Source of the DNA: Clostridia bacterium
GTDB taxonomy: Bacteria > Bacillota > Clostridia > Oscillospirales > CAG-272
Reading direction: 5' to 3'
DNA: 64,000 bases
Assembly (NCBI GenBank): GCA_017462385.1
Contig: JAFTRE010000032.1
Span: 104,488-168,487, forward strand
The notes below the pieces were generated by a model. That model was given only the letters and a program-made list of their open reading frames with translations, searched no databases and was not told the DNA's origin. Both the position numbers and the translations under genes were made by a program. Positions 1,658 to 60,210 of this stretch are shown in pieces. Every line of letters begins with the position of its first letter. The first letter of the stretch is position 1.

Positions 1658-2158
1658 TTAAATGACCTCAATACTCTCGATAACGACAGCGTCTCTCGGT
1701 ACGTCCTGCATATACCAGCCGCGATTGCCCGTTTTGACCGAAGCGATCTTGTCGATCACGTCCTCGCCCTCGATAACCTTTCCGAATGCCGCGTACTGCG
1801 CGTCAAGGTGCGGAGAGGGCTGATGCATGATAAAGAACTGCGAGGATGCCGAGTCGGGATCCGAGGTGCGCGCCATGGAAAGCACACCGCGCTCGTGCTT
1901 TATGTCGTTCTTCAAAAAGCCGTTTGCGGCGAACTCGCCCTTGATGGCGTCCGCTTCCTTGTCCTCAAACATTTCGGTGTACCCGCCGCCCTGTATCATA
2001 AAGCCGCGGATAACGCGGTGGAAAATGGTACCCGAGTAAAAGCCCTCGCCAACCAGCTTCAGAAAATTCTCGACAGTCTTTGGTGCCTTTTCGGGGTACA
2101 GCTCGGCGATCATCTCGCCAAATCCCTTAACTGTTATTTTTACTTTTGGATTGCTCAT
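1658..2158 (-). CDS. ppiB: peptidyl-prolyl cis-trans isomerase, cyclophilin type
   Basis: 166-aa ORF with cyclophilin signatures FHRVIRGFMIQGG and SMARTSDPDSASSQFFI. Confidence 0.9.
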   Translation of the reverse strand: MSNPKVKITVKGFGEMIAELYPEKAPKTVENFLKLVGEGFYSGTIFHRVIRGFMIQGGGYTEMFEDKEADAIKGEFAANGFLKNDIKHERGVLSMARTSDPDSASSQFFIMHQPSPHLDAQYAAFGKVIEGEDVIDKIASVKTGNRGWYMQDVPRDAVVIESIEVI

Positions 2159-9046: not shown

Positions 9047-9076
9047 TTGACAAATTTACGCGCAAAATGATATAAT
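9047..9076 (+). promoter_or_regulatory. strong sigma-70-type promoter, divergent from the rpmH promoter
   Basis: Consensus TTGACA (9047-9052), an 18-nt spacer, then consensus TATAAT (9071-9076). Confidence 0.6.
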
Positions 9077-9082
9077 AATGCC

Positions 9083-9445
9083 GTGAACGGTCACAATAAG
9101 GCCGGACACCGTAAGGGTGCGCTCAAAACGGTGCGGCGGTTGCTTTCCGATTCCGGGAAGTCATATCTGATACCATTTATGCCATAACTCGGACACCCGC
9201 TTGCGGGTGCGACAGGTGGCAAGTAGATTTTGTTACCGTGTGGCAATATGCCACCGTTGCCTTCCCGAGATGGGAGGTGATGCCGATGTATATAACATTG
9301 GAGCAGTTGTTCCTGATAGCAGGATTCATACTCGCGCTTTTGGTTTACATGGACAACAAAAAAAGATAACCGCCCTGACGACCAATCTTAGCGATTATCT
9401 TTAATCATTGAGCTTGGAAGCAACCGTCGCCGGTGCCCCTTACGT
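9083..9445 (+). ncRNA. candidate structured RNA (or mRNA leader) closed by a long-range 5'-3' helix and enclosing a small ORF
   Basis: 9110-9117 pairs perfectly with 9437-9444 (8 bp, extendable by about 4). 9133-9148 pairs with 9416-9430 (15 bp, one bulge, one GU). The SD GGGAGG (9272-9277) can pair with CUUCCC (9261-9266), and that anti-SD can alternatively pair with CGGGAAG (9154-9160). The motif CGGACACC..GGGTGCG recurs twice (9103-9121, 9190-9210). I could not recognise any conserved core of RNase P, tmRNA, SRP or 6S RNA. Confidence 0.45.
9286..9369 (+). CDS. 27-aa hydrophobic peptide MYITLEQLFLIAGFILALLVYMDNKKR (candidate type I toxin or holin-like small membrane peptide)
   Basis: ATG lies 8 nt after the GGGAGG SD. 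The peptide has a single TM-length hydrophobic stretch and a basic C-terminus (NKKR). Its architecture resembles the Hol-Tox (PF16935) and type I toxin families from memory. It is too short for the ORF track. Confidence 0.45.
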   Translation: MYITLEQLFLIAGFILALLVYMDNKKR

Positions 9446-11590: not shown

Positions 11591-12973
11591 ATGAACTTAA
11601 ACGATACCATCGCCGCCATCTCCACGCCGCCCGGCAAGGGAGGAGTCGCACTTATCAGAATATCCGGCGACGAAGCGCTTTCCATTGCCGACAGGACTTT
11701 TCGCCCGAGATCGGGCAAAAGACTGTCCGACCTTGCCGCCCGCACGGCAATTTACGGCGACATTCTCACAAAAGAGCCGGACGGCAGTCTTGTTCGCATT
11801 GACGACGGCATCGCGACAGTTTTTCGTGCGCCCGCGTCATATACAGGCGAGGACACTGTGGAAATATGCTGTCACGGCGGCGCGCTTATCACGCGCGAGG
11901 TGTTGTCCGCCGTGCTCGCCGCCGGCGCGCGTCAAGCCGATGCAGGAGAGTTTACCCGCCGCGCTCACATCTCGGGGCGGCTGGGACTGTCTGCGGCGGA
12001 GGCGCTTGCCACGTTGCTTGACGCCAAAACACATGAACAGCTGAAACTGTCCCGCTCGGGGCTTGACGGCGCGCTGTCGCGCAAGACCTCCGAGCTTTAT
12101 AGCGAGCTACGCCGCCTTGTCAGTGACGTCTATGCCCGCGTCGACTTTCCCGAGGAGGATCTGGCGGGGCTTTCCCGCGACGAGCTGACCGAGGGCGTGC
12201 GCCAAGTTGAAGCCGAACTGCGCCATCTCATGAGCACATATCGCACGGGGCACGCCATTTCCGAGGGCATATCCACCGTGCTTTGCGGCGCTACCAACAG
12301 CGGCAAAAGCTCGCTTTACAATGCCCTGCTGGGTAAGGACGCCGCCATTGTCACCGACATTGCGGGCACGACGCGCGATATTCTGGAGGACACCGTCAGC
12401 TTCGGCGGCGTCACGTTGCGCCTGTGCGACACGGCGGGGCTGCGCGAGAGCGAGGACACGGTCGAGCGCATCGGCATTGAGCGGGCGAGAGAAAAAGTCG
12501 AGTCCGCAGAGCTTGTCATCGCGCTGTTTGACACCTCGCGCGAGCTGACCGAGCAGGACACTGCCCTGCTCGGCTATCTGGACGGACTTATTTCCCCGGT
12601 AATAATTCTCGAAACAAAATCCGACCTGCCCGCCCGCGCATCATTACCCGGGAAATACAGCGCCATCCGCGTCTCGACCAAGACAGGAGAGGGACTGGAG
12701 GCGCTGGCGGCACGTATAAATTCGCTTTTTATCGACGGAAATATAAACATTTCGACCGACGCGGTCGCCGCGACCGCGCGTCAGTATGCCGCGCTTTCCC
12801 GCGCTGCCGACGCGGTATCGGGAGCGCTGGCGGCGCTTGATGCGGGGCTTCCGGAGGATATCGCGGGCAGCGACATCGAGCTTGCCATGTCCGCGCTCGC
12901 CGAGATAGACGGGCGCGAGGTCACCGCCGACATCGTTTCCGAAATATTTTCCCGCTTTTGCGTGGGAAAATAA
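11591..12973 (+). CDS. mnmE: tRNA uridine-5-carboxymethylaminomethyl modification GTPase MnmE
   Basis: 460 aa with the G-domain motif GATNSGKSSL, DTAGLRE, and the diagnostic C-terminal CVGK. Confidence 0.95.
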   Translation: MNLNDTIAAISTPPGKGGVALIRISGDEALSIADRTFRPRSGKRLSDLAARTAIYGDILTKEPDGSLVRIDDGIATVFRAPASYTGEDTVEICCHGGALITREVLSAVLAAGARQADAGEFTRRAHISGRLGLSAAEALATLLDAKTHEQLKLSRSGLDGALSRKTSELYSELRRLVSDVYARVDFPEEDLAGLSRDELTEGVRQVEAELRHLMSTYRTGHAISEGISTVLCGATNSGKSSLYNALLGKDAAIVTDIAGTTRDILEDTVSFGGVTLRLCDTAGLRESEDTVERIGIERAREKVESAELVIALFDTSRELTEQDTALLGYLDGLISPVIILETKSDLPARASLPGKYSAIRVSTKTGEGLEALAARINSLFIDGNINISTDAVAATARQYAALSRAADAVSGALAALDAGLPEDIAGSDIELAMSALAEIDGREVTADIVSEIFSRFCVGK

Positions 12974-19934: not shown

Positions 19935-20152
19935 CAAAGCCTTCTCCTTGAGGAGAAGGTGGCGCCGAGCAAAGCGAGGTGACGGATGAGGTGTAGCCGC
20001 GATAGCGGCGTTATAATTTAATAATACTAACAAACGGATGCTCCGCATCCTACACCTCATCAGTCACCGCGCGCCGCGCTTGCGCTTGCTTGCGGTGACA
20101 GCTTCCCCTCAAGGGGAAGCCTATTTATGGTGACGTTCTCCCGCCCTACGGA
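19935..20152. repeat. family A modules arranged head-to-head (inverted pair)
   Basis: 20033-20152 is about 96-97 percent identical to the reverse complement of 45190-45302. 19937-20015 is a diverged copy of the same module in the opposite orientation. Confidence 0.8.
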
Positions 20153-40238: not shown

Positions 40239-40714
40239 ATGAAATCCGAGCAATTTGCTTCGCAAATATCTGCTCGGATGAAATCTTCGGCGTGCCGCCT
40301 CAGATGAAATTAAATCCGTCCTATCTCTCCCCGCGAAGCGGGATTTCATCGCGAAGCGATTTCATCATACGCAAGTGGGATTTATCCCGTCCGTATGGAC
40401 GGATTTAGTTGAAAAAAGCAGATTGCTTTCGCAATCTGCTTTTTTCTGGCGGAGACGGAGAGATTTGAACCCTTTCGTTTAATGAAATCGTGCTACGCAC
40501 GATGAAATCCGAGCAATTTGCTTCGCAAATATCTGCTCGGATGAAATCTTCGGCCTACGGCCTCAGATGAAATTAAATCCGTCCTATCTCTCCCCGCGAA
40601 GCGGGTTTTCATCGCGAAGCGATTTCATCCTACGCAAGTGGGATTTATCCCGTCCGTATGGACGGATTTAGTTGAAAAAAGCAGATTGCTTTCGCAATCT
40701 GCTTTTTTCTTGGC
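40239..40714. repeat. 263-bp-period tandem duplication (2 copies of ~210 bp), each copy starting right after a tRNA CCA end
   Basis: 40239-40450 and 40502-40714 differ only at a small hairpin (GGCG-tgc-CGCC vs GGCC-tac-GGCC), two A substitutions and one T indel. Each contains repeated ATGAAATC/GATTTCAT octamers around hairpins and a bidirectional terminator GAAAAAAGCAGATTGC-tttc-GCAATCTGCTTTTTTC. Confidence 0.9.
40447..40472 (-). pseudogene. 3' fragment of a tRNA gene (T-loop plus acceptor 3' strand plus CCA)
   Basis: The minus strand reads GGTTCAAATCTCTCCGTCTCCGCCA. The T-stem 5' strand and everything upstream are missing. The sequence differs from the tRNA-Trp 3' end. Confidence 0.6.
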
Positions 40715-40786
40715 AGGGGCAGAAGGACTTGAACCCACGACACCCAGTTTTGGAGACTGGTGTTCTACCGACTGAACTATACCCCT
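40711..40786 (-). tRNA. trnW: tRNA-Trp (anticodon CCA)
   Basis: 76 nt. The acceptor stem AGGGGTA/TGCCCCT pairs (one GU), with discriminator G and an encoded CCA. The anticodon arm is CCAGT-CTCCAAA-ACTGG and the T-loop is GGTTCAAGTCC. Upstream promoter on the minus strand: TTGACC, 17 nt, TATAAT. Confidence 0.9.
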
Positions 40787-43091: not shown

Positions 43092-43098
43092 GTTAATA

Positions 43099-43309
43099 TT
43101 GCCCTCTCCGTCGCGGCTATCCGCGACACCTCTCCCAAAGGGAGAGGCAAATTAGGCTCTCCCTCGCGGCTATCCGCGACACCTCTCCCAACGGGAGAGG
43201 CAAATTAGGCTCTCCGTCGCGGCTATCCGCGACACCTCTCCCGGAGGGAGAGGCAAATTAGGCTCTCCCTCTGGGAGAGCTGTCAGCGTAGCTGACTGAG
43301 AGGGTATGC
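43099..43309. repeat. family A tandem array: three ~53-bp units plus a terminal module
   Basis: Units at 43099-43154, 43155-43207 and 43208-43260. Each is GGCTCTCC-[GTCGCGG ctat CCGCGAC]-A-[CCTCTCCC nnn GGGAGAGG]-CAAATTA, with loop triplets aaa, aac and gga. The array ends with GCTCTCCC-tct-GGGAGAGC and GTCAGC-gta-GCTGAC. Confidence 0.9.
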
Positions 43310-43355
43310 ACGAAAAATACACAATACTAAAAATATAAAATAAGGACAAAACATC

Positions 43356-44749: not shown

Positions 44750-45310
44750 ATTTGTTGAGGGGGAACTTTTGAGCTCGCGCTGTGCGCGAGGTCTATAAAA
44801 TGTTCCCCCTCAAACTCCCCCTCAAAAACTTTCAACCGTTTGGGTGGGGTTAAATTCGATAGCTTGTCGCGTTAGGTAAACTCAGCATCCTCCTGCTTCA
44901 CGTAGGATGCCCTGACGGGATTATGATATTATTATGTTGTTCGTAGTACCTTGTTTATCTAAAACTTTACAGTGTCTTAGCCTCTCCCTATGGGAGAGGT
45001 GTCGCGGCTTGCCGCGACGGAGAGGGCGTTTATTGGCATCGATTTTACCCTCTCAGTCGCCTTTGGCGACAGCTCTCCCTGAGGGAGAGCCTTTTGCAAT
45101 GTCAGCTTTTAGTTGAAACAGAGCCGTAGGGGCCGGCGTTTCGCGGGCATCGCCCTACGGTATATGGTGACGGTAAATTAAATGGATGAGGCGGGAGAAC
45201 GCCACCATAAATAGGCTTCCCCTTGAGGGGAAGCTGTCACCGCAAGCAAGCGCAAGCGCGCGCCGCGGTGACTGATGAGGTGTAGGATGCGGAGCATCCG
45301 TTCGGTATAT
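44750..45310. repeat. composite mosaic of hairpin repeat modules (families A and C) filling the asnS/PFOR convergent spacer
   Basis: Contains GAGGGGGAAC..GTTCCCCCTC, GCATCC..GGATGC, the full MITE-like unit (44928-45130), GTAGGGGCCGGCG..CGCCCTAC, GGCTTCCCCTTGAGGGGAAGC, GTCACCGC..GCGGTGAC and GGATGC-ggag-GCATCC. Parts recur at 2191, 19935, 55454 and 58757. Confidence 0.85.
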
Positions 45311-55039: not shown

Positions 55040-55346
55040 ACAAAAAATCTCCGCATCGAACGATATTGTTCGACACAGAGACGGAAATACATCCGCGGTA
55101 CCACTCTGCTTTATTGCCGCCTTACGACAGCAACCTTTGCGGGCATTCGGTGTTCAAACGTCCACCGATATGACGGTCGGCATCCGGCGCAGCCTACTTC
55201 GCGTTCGGTGCGCAGCTCCCGAAGAGTAATTCATCGACGCGCGCCGCCTGCTCGCACCACCCGCAGACTCTCTGAAGGACTTTTCCCGCCGACTACTGGA
55301 CTTCGATCATAGCTTTTATGGTCAAAACCACTTTAGTATTATAAGT
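55040..55346 (-). promoter_or_regulatory. T-box riboswitch leader
   Basis: On the minus strand: the T-box core AGAGTGGTACCGCGG (55093-55107) and a terminator CTCTGTGTCGAAC-aatatc-GTTCGATGCGGAG plus ATTTTTTG. An 86-nt candidate Stem I (55220-55305) has an AGUA element, an AGAGAG bulge and a 3'-side GAAUUACU next to the basal CGAAG/CUUCG helix. Confidence 0.75.
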
Positions 55347-55453: not shown

Positions 55454-55515
55454 CCATTGTAGGACCGGCGCCACGCGAACGTCACCACGAATAGGCTTCT
55501 CCTTGAGGAGAAGCC
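55454..55515. repeat. family A short copy
   Basis: CCATTGTAGG..CGTCACCACGAATA-GGCTTCTCCTTGAGGAGAAGCC is homologous to modules at 20101-20150, 45150-45235 and 58905-58970. Confidence 0.7.
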
Positions 55516-58234: not shown

Positions 58235-58711
58235 ATGAAAAAGTTCAAATTTCTCGCGGCTCTGCTTGCCGCGCTTATGATAATGACGCTATGCGCGCTT
58301 TGCGTTTCGGCGCATCCTCTGCTACCCGGCATGGACGGCAGGAGAAGCGGTGAGCCCGGCGAGAACACGGGTGCGGTCACCACCAACACGCCCGATTCGG
58401 GTGACAACAGTCAAATTCCCGACCTCGCCCCCGACGGCACCACCACCGCCGATACCACGACGCCCGAGGTTACCACTACCGCTGACACTACGACTGCGGA
58501 CACCACGACAGCCGACACGACCGTAGCAGACACCACGACAGCCGTCACGACCACTCCCGCGCCTGTTACCACGCCTTCGGACGCAACGGACGGTGCGGGC
58601 GGTAATGAGGACGGCGACAACTCCATTTTAGGTGTTATCATCGCCATCATCGCGGTTGCCGTTATAGTTGTTGTCATTGTCATGCTTGTGCCCAAAAAGA
58701 AAAGGCCCTGA
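58235..58711 (+). CDS. secreted Thr/Asp-rich repeat protein with a C-terminal membrane anchor
   Basis: Signal peptide MKKFKFLAALLAALMIMTLCALCVSA, the repeat TTTADTTTPEVTTTADTTTADTTTADTTVADTTTAVTTT, and a C-terminal TM helix followed by KKKRP. Confidence 0.7.
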   Translation: MKKFKFLAALLAALMIMTLCALCVSAHPLLPGMDGRRSGEPGENTGAVTTNTPDSGDNSQIPDLAPDGTTTADTTTPEVTTTADTTTADTTTADTTVADTTTAVTTTPAPVTTPSDATDGAGGNEDGDNSILGVIIAIIAVAVIVVVIVMLVPKKKRP

Positions 58712-58756
58712 CGGATAAAACGCAGCTCTATTCGCCTGCGGACGTGCAATGCACGC

Positions 58757-59008
58757 CCCTACGGCGCTGTTTCAACAAAAAGCCGACTCTGCAAAAGGCT
58801 CTCCCTCTGGGAGAGCTGTCGCCAAAGGCGACTGAGAGGGTAAGATCGATGCCGATAAACGCCCTCTCCGTCGCGGCGAGCCGCGACACCTCTCCCATAG
58901 GGAGAGGCTATTTGTAGTGGCGTTCGCTCGTACCGACCGTTTAATTTACCGTCACCGTATACCGTAGGGCGGGGGCTCTGCTCCCGCCCTACAGCGTATG
59001 GTGACGCT
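58757..59008. repeat. family A composite (reverse-orientation partial MITE-like unit plus accessory modules)
   Basis: 58757-58909 is the reverse complement of the right ~150 bp of the 2191-2393 unit. 58910-59008 is homologous to the reverse complement of about 45124-45215, including GTAGGGCGGGGGC-tctg-CTCCCGCCCTAC. Confidence 0.85.
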
Positions 59009-59024
59009 GGATCAAACAAATTTT

Positions 59025-59053
59025 CAAATTCCTATTTACAAGACTCGCTTTTC
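59025..59053 (+). promoter_or_regulatory. promoter of the structured leader/sRNA
   Basis: TTTACA (59025-59030), a 17-nt spacer, then TAAAAT (59048-59053). Confidence 0.55.
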
Positions 59054-59055
59054 AT

Positions 59056-59236
59056 GGTAAAATAATGTTGCGACGTAAATTTAATAAAAATCAGTTATAA
59101 GGGCATTTGTTTTTATTTCGGTAAAAACGCATGCTCCACTTTCGGCATACTCTTATGGCTGATTTTTAGATTTGCGTCGCAACAAATCGGAGGTGCGTTT
59201 TTCGTGCGCGGCTCCGGCTGCGCACTTTTTGTTTTT
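59056..59236 (+). ncRNA. candidate cis-regulatory leader or sRNA: a 119-nt long-stem domain followed by an intrinsic terminator
   Basis: 59056-59090 pairs with 59141-59174 (about 33 bp, with small bulges and GU pairs). The apex has GTTTTTA-tttcgg-TAAAAAC. The terminator is GTGCGCGG-ctccgg-CTGCGCAC (59204-59225) plus TTTTTGTTTTT, ending 39 nt before the downstream ATG. Confidence 0.45.
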
Positions 59237-59274
59237 GTGCGCACAAAATCATGCAAAACATAAGGAGGAAAACC

Positions 59275-59541
59275 ATGACACCAACACTTAAAAAGCTATG
59301 GAACGGAGAAATATCACCCTGTTCCGCGCCCGAACCCGGCACGGATGAGGCAAAGAAATTTCACAAGCTCATCGACCAATTACATAATGAGCTTTCGGTT
59401 TGTCTCGATGCCGAAAATCAGCAAAAGCTCGAAAAGCTGACCGAAGCTGTAGCTATGCTTTATTATCTTATTATAGAAGATACTTTTCAAACAGGCTTTT
59501 CGCTCGGCGTAAAAATCACCGCCGAGGCGTTCATAGAATAA
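59275..59541 (+). CDS. small helical protein (DUF6809-like pattern), function unknown
   Basis: 88 aa from the ATG 7 nt after AAGGAGG. LKKLWNGEISP...LEKLTEA...FQTGFSLGVKITAEAF resembles the LxxLYxGxIxP...GFxLGxxxxAE family as I recall it. The gene is AT-richer than its surroundings. Confidence 0.55.
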   Translation: MTPTLKKLWNGEISPCSAPEPGTDEAKKFHKLIDQLHNELSVCLDAENQQKLEKLTEAVAMLYYLIIEDTFQTGFSLGVKITAEAFIE

Positions 59542-59587
59542 GCACGAAAAGCACGGCTCCATTGTTGCCACGTGAAGTGCAAACACC

Positions 59588-59618
59588 AAAATGCCCGCCG
59601 AAAGGCGGGCAAATTTTA
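59588..59618. terminator. bidirectional terminator
   Basis: AAAAT-GCCCGCC-gaaa-GGCGGGC-AAATTTT, between convergent genes. Confidence 0.7.
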
Positions 59619-59670
59619 TTGTACCTCGCAGGGATGGGTTTTGACCCTCCCCTGCGGTGGATTTTTGTTT

Positions 59671-60210
59671 TTATGTCGCTCCTGAAAAGGCGATGACGTT
59701 CAATGTCAGCTTGCGGGGCGAGGTCATGGCGGCGGCGATGGGACTTCCCGTCGAGAGGTCGACCGTTATGGTACGCGCGGGGTCATCGAACGCGACGGTA
59801 ACCACGGACGGCCTGTCGGCAAGCGGTGTCACGTCCGAAACCGCCCCGTCGGGCAACAGCGCCGTGGCGATATCTATCCAACCGTCTGCATATTCGGCAT
59901 CAAGTGTCAAGTCACCCAAAGCAAGCGACAGCTTTCCGCTCTCGCGCGTCAGCACGACTCCGGACATAGACGCGGGCGCGTAAAAGGTGATGCTGACGTC
60001 GCGGGGCAGCAGGCTGTTCTCACGCGGCTCGGCGGCCGAGACGAGCGCCTCGAACTTTACGCCGTTCGCCTCTCCCGACACTGTCGCGTCAAAAGCTCGC
60101 TCGGTATATGACAGCGCCTTTTTGCTGTCCGCACGCTTGCCGCAACCGCCTGCCGCCAGCAGCAGTGCGACGATCAGGGCAAATAATACAGTATATTTTG
60201 TAAGCTTCAT
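59671..60210 (-). CDS. lipoprotein, function unknown
   Basis: 179 aa with the lipobox LLLAAGGC after a signal helix. Confidence 0.65.
   Translation of the reverse strand: MKLTKYTVLFALIVALLLAAGGCGKRADSKKALSYTERAFDATVSGEANGVKFEALVSAAEPRENSLLPRDVSITFYAPASMSGVVLTRESGKLSLALGDLTLDAEYADGWIDIATALLPDGAVSDVTPLADRPSVVTVAFDDPARTITVDLSTGSPIAAAMTSPRKLTLNVIAFSGAT

Follow-up and report, generated by a model that had tools for sequence, protein, structure and literature searches.

What controls a gene whose start codon lies only 38 nucleotides (nt) beyond an intrinsic terminator? The question is raised by a 64,000-nt stretch of DNA from a Clostridia bacterium (GenBank assembly GCA_017462385.1, contig JAFTRE010000032.1, positions 104,488 to 168,487), called the window below. 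In it, a promoter, a hairpin of about 119 nt, a linker and a terminator precede a small gene for a DUF6809 protein. An initial annotation, made from the sequence of the window alone, took this arrangement for an attenuator or riboswitch-like leader of a class it did not recognise. That view has stood up: the unit is conserved and covaries across a family, its terminator faces a competing antiterminator, and no Rfam family covers it. The promoter is held in a fixed position, the linker has two alternative partners, and the unit lies in cis to the genes that it precedes. A promoter-proximal, co-oriented leader, a terminator before the open reading frame (ORF) and a conserved helix that sequesters part of the terminator place the unit among terminator/antiterminator leaders. 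We consider it probable that it is a cis-acting transcription-attenuation leader from a large, uncatalogued RNA family of gut Clostridia.

Fold and covariation of the leader

The window copy lies on the plus strand and consists of the promoter (59035-59063), the hairpin (59066-59184), the linker (59185-59203) and the intrinsic terminator (59204-59236). Positions 59054-59280 fold with a minimum free energy (MFE) of -85.1 kcal/mol, compared with -52.8 ± 4.5 kcal/mol in 200 dinucleotide shuffles (z = -7.2), none of which matched the native value. Leader and gene together form a patch of low G+C content, 36-47% against 55-65% in the flanks, with the gene at 43-47%.

Comparative analysis shows that this fold is maintained across the family. 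Alignment A7 contains 40 sequences, with 500 shuffles and slid partners as controls; 94.9% of its cells are paired, and both bases vary in 22 of the 38 pairs. Double changes affect 130 cells, against 27.7 in the shuffles, none of the 500 shuffles was as good, and slid partners reached at most 55% pairing. Alignment A6 has 95.3% of its cells paired, again with 0/500 shuffles as good. In A7, the basal stem (YUGCGACACAA / UUGUGUCGCAG) is 99.7% paired, with both-side changes in seven of nine pairs, and the three pairs above it all covary. The middle stem has a wholly different sequence in L010, L011, L018, L071, L108 and other members, and forms a continuous helix each time. Apical helix 3 is 89-90% paired and includes G-C to A-U exchanges at A6 columns 61/82, while the terminator (helix 4 of A7) is 100% paired, again with seven of nine pairs changing on both sides. 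Moreover, G-U pairs in the hairpin occur on the plus strand only. On the reverse strand the covariance model scores about 30-45 bits, compared with 130-167 bits on the forward strand; since this is some 100 bits lower, the plus-strand RNA is the conserved entity.

In the predicted fold of the window copy, the arms of the long stem lie at 59066-59103 and 59150-59184. The initial annotation had recognised this stem and misplaced its arms, to 59056-59090 and 59141-59174. The basal stem pairs its 5' arm UGUUGCGACGUAAAUU (59066-59081) with 59169-59184, and the middle stem pairs 59085-59100 with 59153-59168, within a 3' arm of 59150-59168. Individual folds place a 3-nt UAA bulge (59082-59084) at the junction of the two stems, where other family members have an A-rich internal loop; judging from these folds, the bulge may act as a hinge.

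The apex carries the sequences on which the proposed switch would depend. Segment 1 (GGGCAUUUGUUUUUAU, 59101-59116) forms the 5' strand of an apical hairpin (-13.8 kcal/mol), a UUCG tetraloop follows (59117-59120), and segment 2 (GUAAAAACGCAUGCUCC, 59121-59137) supplies the 3' strand. The family consensus is GRGYRUKYRUUUUUAY for segment 1 and GGUAAAARYGYAKGCUC for segment 2; the two pair and close a loop that varies in sequence and length, and a 3' bulge comes next. The inner part of this hairpin, GUUUUUAU-UUCG-GUAAAAAC (59108-59129), had been described at the outset and is conserved across the family; it is extended by pairing of 59101-59106 with 59131-59136 in window coordinates. A second apical hairpin, AUGCU..GGCAU (59131-59148), was proposed as well. 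It forms in the window, where the bulge GGCAU is able to close it with 59131-59135, and is broken by AGGC in about half of the family. The 3' bulge itself (ACUUUCGGCAUA, 59138-59149) begins with a near-invariant A-Y-U-U-U for which no proposed helix accounts: at A7 columns 102 and 104-106, identity is 90% or higher and the bases are unpaired. U112 further on and the AA after GCAGC are likewise conserved without a pairing role.

The promoter is of the sigma-70 type, with TTTACA at 59035-59040, a 17-nt spacer, a TG extension at 59055-59056 and TAAAAT at 59058-59063, giving 10 of 12 consensus matches in addition to the TG extension. The initial annotation described the same hexamers and spacing at 59025-59053, so that the element was right and its position was not. 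Of 49 distinct sequences upstream of family members, 48 have a 17-nt spacer and 44 carry the TG extension, and in 41 the -10 element stops 2 nt short of the model start. Given this fixed distance between -10 element and stem, the transcript should begin at the stem foot, and in the window its predicted start falls at about 59068-59071, at the stem base.

On the other side of the hairpin, the window linker, or segment 3 (AAUCGGAGGUGCGUUUUUC), corresponds to the family consensus GCAGCAA(UC)GGAG..GCRUUUUUC(G). The terminator that follows consists of GUGCGCGGC (59204-59212), the loop UCCG, GCUGCGCAC (59217-59225) and a T tract (59226-59236); its stem has nine pairs, seven of them G-C. These coordinates agree with those first assigned, as do those of GGAGGTG in the linker region (59189-59195), the Shine-Dalgarno sequence AAGGAGG (59262-59268) and the ATG (59275). 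After the T tract comes a palindrome, GUGCGCAC / GTGCGCAC (59237-59244), which can pair with the terminator 3' arm (59219-59225) and would then loop out the T tract. It is common to the window and L007, not to the other family types. It is transcribed too late to influence the termination decision, and might instead lock read-through transcripts in the open form.

The gene behind the leader runs on the plus strand from the ATG at 59275 to a stop at 59539-59541. Its 88-aa product, correctly likened to DUF6809 in the initial annotation, is a full-length member of that family (PF20648, E = 3.7e-14), scoring 53.7 bits where the gathering cut-off is 27 and aligning to all 85 positions of the profile. 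The 38 nt between T tract and ATG are too short an interval for a separate promoter, and the gene should therefore be expressed only by read-through.

Alternative partners of the linker and the proposed switch

The linker is complementary to the 5' arm and loop of the terminator and also to segment 2 in the apex. When linker and terminator are folded alone, an antiterminator is the MFE structure in 23 of 25 sequence types, at -19 to -27 kcal/mol compared with -11 to -18 kcal/mol for the terminator. The family antiterminator is built from GCAGC:GCUGC, GGAG(Y):(R)CUYC and GCR:YGC pairs. In the window it spans 59187-59217, with UCGGAG (59187-59192) opposite CUCCGG (59212-59217) and UGCGU (59194-59198) opposite GCGCG (59206-59210). 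The mean energy is -20.3 kcal/mol for linkers matched with their own terminators and -17.2 kcal/mol for non-cognate combinations, and none of 5000 permutations was as good. Additionally, several changes in the linker are matched in the terminator loop: CAGAG with CUUUG in L121, UGAGC with GCUCA in L042 and L118, GUGAG with CUCAC in L017, and GGAGU with ACUUC in L018.

The duplex between linker and segment 2 forms in every sequence type, with 14-15 bp, energies of -15 to -23 kcal/mol and z-scores of -3.7 to -6.5 relative to shuffled linkers; in the window it reaches -18.0 kcal/mol with 14 bp and one bulge. For 11 pairs of this helix on A7, 93.4% of the cells are paired and both bases differ in 29 cells; 0/500 shuffles were as good, and slid partners reach 34-62% pairing. 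Nine of the sequences exchange G-C for A-U at columns 93/175, and columns 92/176 vary between U-A, U-G and C-G. Cognate apex-linker pairs beat non-cognate ones in 5000 of 5000 permutations. Because segment 2, the linker and the terminator arm each have to suit more than one partner, the A5/U5 and GCUC/GGAG elements hardly vary.

A further pairing, of the basal-stem 3' arm with the terminator 3' arm beyond GCAGC/GCUGC, was considered and rejected, as the variants GCCAC, GCUAC and CACCAC are uncompensated in the terminator.

These pairings suggest a switch with the logic 1:2 / 2:3 / 3:4 / 4:5, in which anti-antiterminator, antiterminator and terminator would exclude one another in turn. A transcript started by the strong and fixed sigma-70 promoter at the foot of the hairpin would meet the terminator about 20 nt past the hairpin. 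If the linker is free, it would pair with the 5' arm and loop of the terminator, and the resulting antiterminator would allow read-through. If the linker is instead captured by the 3' strand of the apex (59122-59136), the terminator would form and transcription would stop. That apical strand would normally be occupied by its hairpin partner, the 5' strand at 59101-59116, just as the terminator 5' arm would be held either by the linker or by the terminator 3' arm. Stabilising the apical hairpin is thus expected to favour read-through, and opening it, or holding the linker, to favour termination. In the window the competing structures are of similar strength: -13.8 kcal/mol for the 1:2 hairpin, -18.0 for 2:3, -17.8 for the antiterminator (with the last 6 nt of the terminator blocked) and -17.7 for the terminator.

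The switch is presumably used in vivo. Apex and linker would pair in cis, as a pseudoknot that requires the long stem to bend at its internal bulge. An effector, whether a small molecule, a protein or an RNA, may act at the apex and the AYUUU bulge.

Comparison with known systems helps to place the leader. Platforms of the S-box (SAM-I) type share its plan, with a promoter-proximal structured domain followed by mutually exclusive antiterminator and terminator hairpins before an ORF, a strand of the sensor domain that competes for the antiterminator strand, and competing folds of similar energy. Yet the leader family matches no Rfam riboswitch model, and its sensor sits atop a stem of 25-35 bp, so that the competing strand is remote from the linker and competition takes the form of a pseudoknot. 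It also has one extra tier of pairing and serves heterogeneous client genes. T-box leaders (RF00230) of Firmicutes likewise combine a long irregular 5' hairpin with a choice between terminator and antiterminator. However, RF00230 has no match at 58650-59700, even though the same model scores 101.7 bits at 55074-55319. In addition, the leader antiterminator contains no T-box sequence, no specifier-loop or K-turn features were seen, and the client genes are unrelated to aminoacyl-tRNA.

Protein-dependent attenuators, such as those of PyrR, TRAP, LicT/SacY (ribonucleic antiterminator, RAT) and ANTAR proteins, resemble the leader in that intrinsic termination depends on whether an antiterminator strand is free, and in that one factor can govern many unlinked leaders. 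The differences are that the PyrR family of Rfam has no match here and that no (G/U)AG repeats, RAT hairpin or paired hexaloop hairpins were seen. Antisense attenuation of the rep leaders of pT181, pIP501 and pAMbeta1 also relies on long hairpins and on a complementary strand that captures a leader segment and thereby lets the terminator form. In the leader family, by contrast, the complementary strand lies in the same transcript, at the apex, and not on the opposite DNA strand, and no replication gene follows. The lambda pR'-tR' (6S) and HK022 put systems offer a parallel of another sort: a constitutive promoter yields a short terminated RNA, downstream genes need read-through, structured promoter-proximal RNA precedes the terminators, and several leader clients, too, look like cargo of mobile elements. 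Unlike those systems, the leader has alternative pairings that overlap the terminator, which indicates a local structural switch and not a modification of RNA polymerase; no Q-like gene was found, and 2.9 million viral contigs held one true match. Finally, the multi-copy small RNAs LhrC1-5 of Listeria share tandem units with their own promoter and terminator and a CU-rich motif complementary to GGAG. Most leader copies, however, directly precede a co-oriented ORF and carry an antiterminator, and their CU-rich motif is paired instead of exposed in loops. The leader thus represents a new family within an established type of regulator, the conditional-termination leader; it is absent from curated families and makes a good orphan-riboswitch candidate.

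Distribution of the family and rival explanations

Rfam 15 bears out the initial impression that no known class is present. At the gathering threshold, the whole window yields only the T-box leader at 55074-55319 and a tRNA; at E up to 10, positions 58650-59700 give matches to long hairpins of the microRNA and snoRNA type, the best at 28 bits against a threshold of 245. Six other members of the leader family have no match on the element. No sequence match occurs in 200 of the 408 supplement files of a human-microbiome structured-RNA survey (PMC8040213), and a literature search on RNA motifs of Oscillibacter and Oscillospiraceae returned nothing relevant.

Related copies were found along several routes. 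The leader is identical in contigs of the same species (L001-L005), which are hence uninformative. More telling is L007, in which the entire unit is about 88% identical in nucleotide sequence, and the DUF6809 protein only 43% identical, to its window counterpart. Its neighbourhood differs from that of the window as well, with yicC-remA-rpoZ on one side and cysK and cysE on the other. A leader better conserved than its gene points to an RNA under selection of its own. A distant blastn comparison with phage records gave two copies, one (L010) upstream of a gene for a zinc-ribbon membrane protein and the other (L011) upstream of a lipoprotein gene, and a search of 2.9 million viral contigs with the apex pattern gave one true copy, preceding an ion-channel gene (L013). 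With the linker pattern, the viral contigs gave only two chance matches inside coding sequence (L008 and L009), and a search of a plasmid collection for the leader gave none. Metagenome contigs proved much richer: the apex pattern occurs in at least 120 stretches, mostly from human gut. Among the matches listed, 68 have a recognisable terminator and reduce to 33 distinct cores, and 28 of these were used to build the covariance model R1. In the fetched Clostridia and Oscillospiraceae genome and metagenome contigs, R1 recovers more than 90 copies cleanly, divergent ones included, at 70-168 bits, and it can be used to annotate Clostridia genomes and metagenomes. The carriers are gut Clostridia, some of them at least from the Oscillospiraceae; public records list one client protein under Dysosmobacter sp., the window protein under Clostridia bacterium, and other DUF6809 proteins under Oscillospiraceae.

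The genes behind these leaders share no pathway or metabolic theme. They encode lipoproteins, zinc-ribbon membrane proteins, XRE regulators, a J-domain protein, an ion channel, leucine-rich-repeat surface proteins, an O-antigen-ligase-like protein, a SLOG-like protein and DUF6809. Several of them look like mobile-element cargo, and no candidate regulator gene is consistently adjacent to the copies. In 44 of 65 distinct downstream contexts, a co-oriented Shine-Dalgarno sequence and ORF begin at most 60 nt from the element, and in 62 of 65 at most 150 nt.

Association with DUF6809 in particular, which the initial annotation had raised, holds at one locus outside the species and fails at others. 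An exhaustive HMMER search gave 83 DUF6809 relatives, while a word-indexed protein search with the window protein found no match beyond the query. A locus scan that used the four closest relatives as queries led to two paralogues in one Eubacteriales metagenome-assembled genome, L006 and L007. The covarying leader precedes L007, whereas the L006 locus lacks the hairpin and carries a divergent XRE gene; the covariance model, even at E up to 1, detects no leader copy at seven other DUF6809 loci. A leader specific to DUF6809 is accordingly ruled out, since the leader also precedes many unrelated genes. As for the protein, a literature search found no mention of DUF6809. The genes next to it include tyrosine integrases (L136, L139), XRE-type regulators (L135, L006) and an AAA_25/DnaB-like gene (L140), and L139 has two DUF6809 genes in tandem. 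Judging by these neighbours, DUF6809 seems to be a small protein carried by integrative mobile elements.

Several contigs hold more than one copy. Those in L130 (239-616, minus strand), L093 (1109-1485, minus strand) and L023 (3412-3997) have diverged, and each copy has its own promoter and terminator; tandem units lie about 210 nt apart. In L023, an XRE gene is preceded by an intact copy, which itself follows two copies decayed at the 5' end. The two copies of L042, likewise diverged and each with a promoter and terminator of its own, lie 3 kb apart at 9047-9220 and 12370-12538 (minus strand) and precede different genes. Other copies are broken or recombined. The leader of L098 (3096-3246) is interrupted past the linker, where an element bearing an inverted end and a transposase-like ORF has inserted; that of L041 (106-260) is cut within the terminator; and in L078, a fusion joins roughly the first 14 codons of the lipoprotein client to an unrelated membrane protein. 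These three cases suggest frequent recombination at leader units. L097 additionally carries a Gut-1 RNA (RF01706, 74 bits) at 2022-2097 (minus strand), with a weaker copy at 1918-2003 (plus strand), on the opposite strand about 1.8 kb from the leader.

If the switch is real, gut Clostridia would control scattered accessory genes, many of them surface-exposed or mobile, through one uncatalogued leader. That leader is a defined orphan regulatory RNA with a structural hypothesis attached, in the form of competing strands and conserved nucleotides that do not pair. Among conditional terminators it would be unusual in placing its sensor on a long stem that reaches the linker by a pseudoknot, and in its three-tier platform. 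The identity of the effector would reveal the signal by which poorly studied organisms deploy horizontally acquired genes. A more ambitious interpretation, which we put forward tentatively and consider less likely than not, is that the family forms a new orphan riboswitch class, or a leader class whose effector is a novel protein or RNA, and that this class is common among gut Oscillospiraceae and in other Clostridia. The apical hairpin and invariant AYUUU bulge on a long bent stem would then be the sensor of the three-tier platform, and dozens of unrelated accessory genes for surface, membrane and mobile-element functions would answer to one global signal. In a variant of this interpretation, abundant terminated leaders would act in trans on each other's linkers and so couple all the copies in a cell.

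A number of observations weigh against attenuation in cis. All the shuffle and permutation statistics given above ignore kinship among the sequences. The eight antiterminator pairs that occupy fixed columns are 93% paired, with covariation no higher than in shuffles; since this subset shows no excess, support for the antiterminator comes from the register-free energy comparison. In the window, GCAACA stands for the family GCAGCA, which weakens the foot of the antiterminator and leaves it at -17.8 kcal/mol against -17.7 kcal/mol for the terminator. Nearest-neighbour energies favour the read-through state (1:2 with the antiterminator) in most types. Moreover, the apex-linker helix crosses the long stem, only 4-8 nt separate stem foot and linker, and the helix could be intermolecular instead. 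Lastly, the L018 type, L016 and L111 appear stand-alone or have a second promoter before the next gene, a convergent gene follows L121, and the tandem copies of L130, L093 and L023 each have their own promoter, patterns that a small-RNA gene would fit too.

We regard such a trans-acting small RNA as rather unlikely. The unit would then be a multi-copy gene made up of a promoter, a structured RNA of about 165 nt and a terminator, the conserved GCUCY/AYUUU region would be a seed directed at GGAG-containing targets, and downstream expression would be leak-through. Besides the second promoters and convergent gene just mentioned, it would account for the strong promoter and terminator owned by each unit, for the tandem copies in L130 and L093, the three copies in L023 and the two in L042, and for the complementarity of the apex strand to GGAG-containing sequence. 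A stand-alone RNA, however, needs no conserved, co-varying antiterminator that overlaps its own terminator, and the 44 contexts with an ORF start within 60 nt leave too little room for another promoter; the putative seed, too, is base-paired in every predicted fold. Control in cis and small-RNA action in trans are compatible, and a terminated leader could also act in trans. Somewhat less probable again is an unregulated cassette, in which the 5' hairpin shields the transcript against 5' exonuclease, leakiness of the terminator keeps the downstream gene at a fixed low level, and recombination spreads the unit ahead of accessory genes. A hairpin at the 5' end of the transcript stabilises mRNAs in Firmicutes, and the predicted transcript start exactly at the stem foot fits this idea, as do the many accessory or mobile-element-type clients, the decayed or truncated copies (L023 copies 1 and 2, L041, L098) and the recombination junction just inside the lipoprotein signal peptide in L078. 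What it leaves unexplained is the sequence conservation of apex, bulge and linker, the two alternative partners of the linker with their compensatory changes, and the near-equal energies of the competing folds.

Two further explanations that the initial annotation had raised fare considerably worse. It had allowed that the stem might be an intergenic repeat without covariation, comparable to a miniature inverted-repeat transposable element, whose inverted ends mimic a hairpin and which has no function as RNA. GC-rich repeat families do fill neighbouring intergenic regions, including 58743-58971 directly upstream, and the unit occurs at many loci and in tandem; but the stem arm matches only itself and its own partner, so that the hairpin is single-copy within the 64-kb window, and the middle stem changes completely between types yet stays paired, with G-U pairs on the plus strand only. 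The conserved unit extends to a positioned promoter and terminator outside the inverted repeat, and its borders show no terminal-repeat or target-duplication pattern. Together with the covariation and the strand asymmetry of the model scores, this makes such a repeat very improbable, and translation-coupled attenuation is, if anything, harder still to credit. The latter would start from GGAGGUG (59189-59195) as a Shine-Dalgarno sequence and GUG at 59204, opening a 19-codon leader peptide that runs through the terminator. Such an ORF does exist in the window, where GGAGG stands 10 nt before the GUG and the frame spans the terminator up to the downstream Shine-Dalgarno sequence, but it is not conserved: a 1-nt indel after the T tract of L007 alters frame and stop, and members with the terminator loop CUUCGUGC for CUUCGGC change frame inside the terminator. 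No start codon keeps a constant spacing from GGAG, the distance being 1-2 or 13-14 nt in most types. GGAG itself varies to UGAG, CGAG or GUGAG in step with the terminator-loop sequence that it pairs with, which marks it as an element of RNA pairing and not as a ribosome-binding site.

Other features near the leader and in the window

The intergenic region upstream of the leader promoter is occupied by one copy (58743-58971) of a GC-rich, multi-hairpin repeat family that is unrelated to the leader hairpin. Further copies lie at 2215-2355, 43094-43313, 44954-45225, 20028-20145 and 55477-55514. They contain motifs such as CTCTCCC-NNN-GGGAGAG and GTCGCGGC-NNN-GCCGCGAC, occur in both orientations and include tandem 53-nt units at 43104-43271. 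The copy at 58743-58971 probably explains why several assemblies break at 58866.

Ahead of this repeat, a plus-strand gene (58235-58711) encodes a protein of 158 aa that has a signal-like N-terminus and a C-terminal membrane anchor as well as a repeat rich in Thr and Asp (TTADTT...); its Pfam matches are weak and below threshold, among them one to a CD1107-like mobile-element protein. Beyond the DUF6809 gene, a perfect bidirectional terminator (59592-59611, TGCCCGCC-GAAA-GGCGGGCA) with T and A runs on its two sides separates it from a convergent gene (59671-60210, minus strand), whose lipoprotein-like product of 179 aa has no Pfam match.

Farther away, the T-box leader at 55074-55319 (minus strand, 101.7 bits against a gathering threshold of 93) lies near the rplK-rplA / nusG-secE-rpmG cluster. 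Two direct repeats of 209 nt, 98% identical and 263 nt apart, occupy 40239-40710 next to a tRNA gene (40714-40786, minus strand), and each of them ends in a perfect terminator-like palindrome, GAAAAAAGCAGATTGC-TTTC-GCAATCTGCTTTTTTC.

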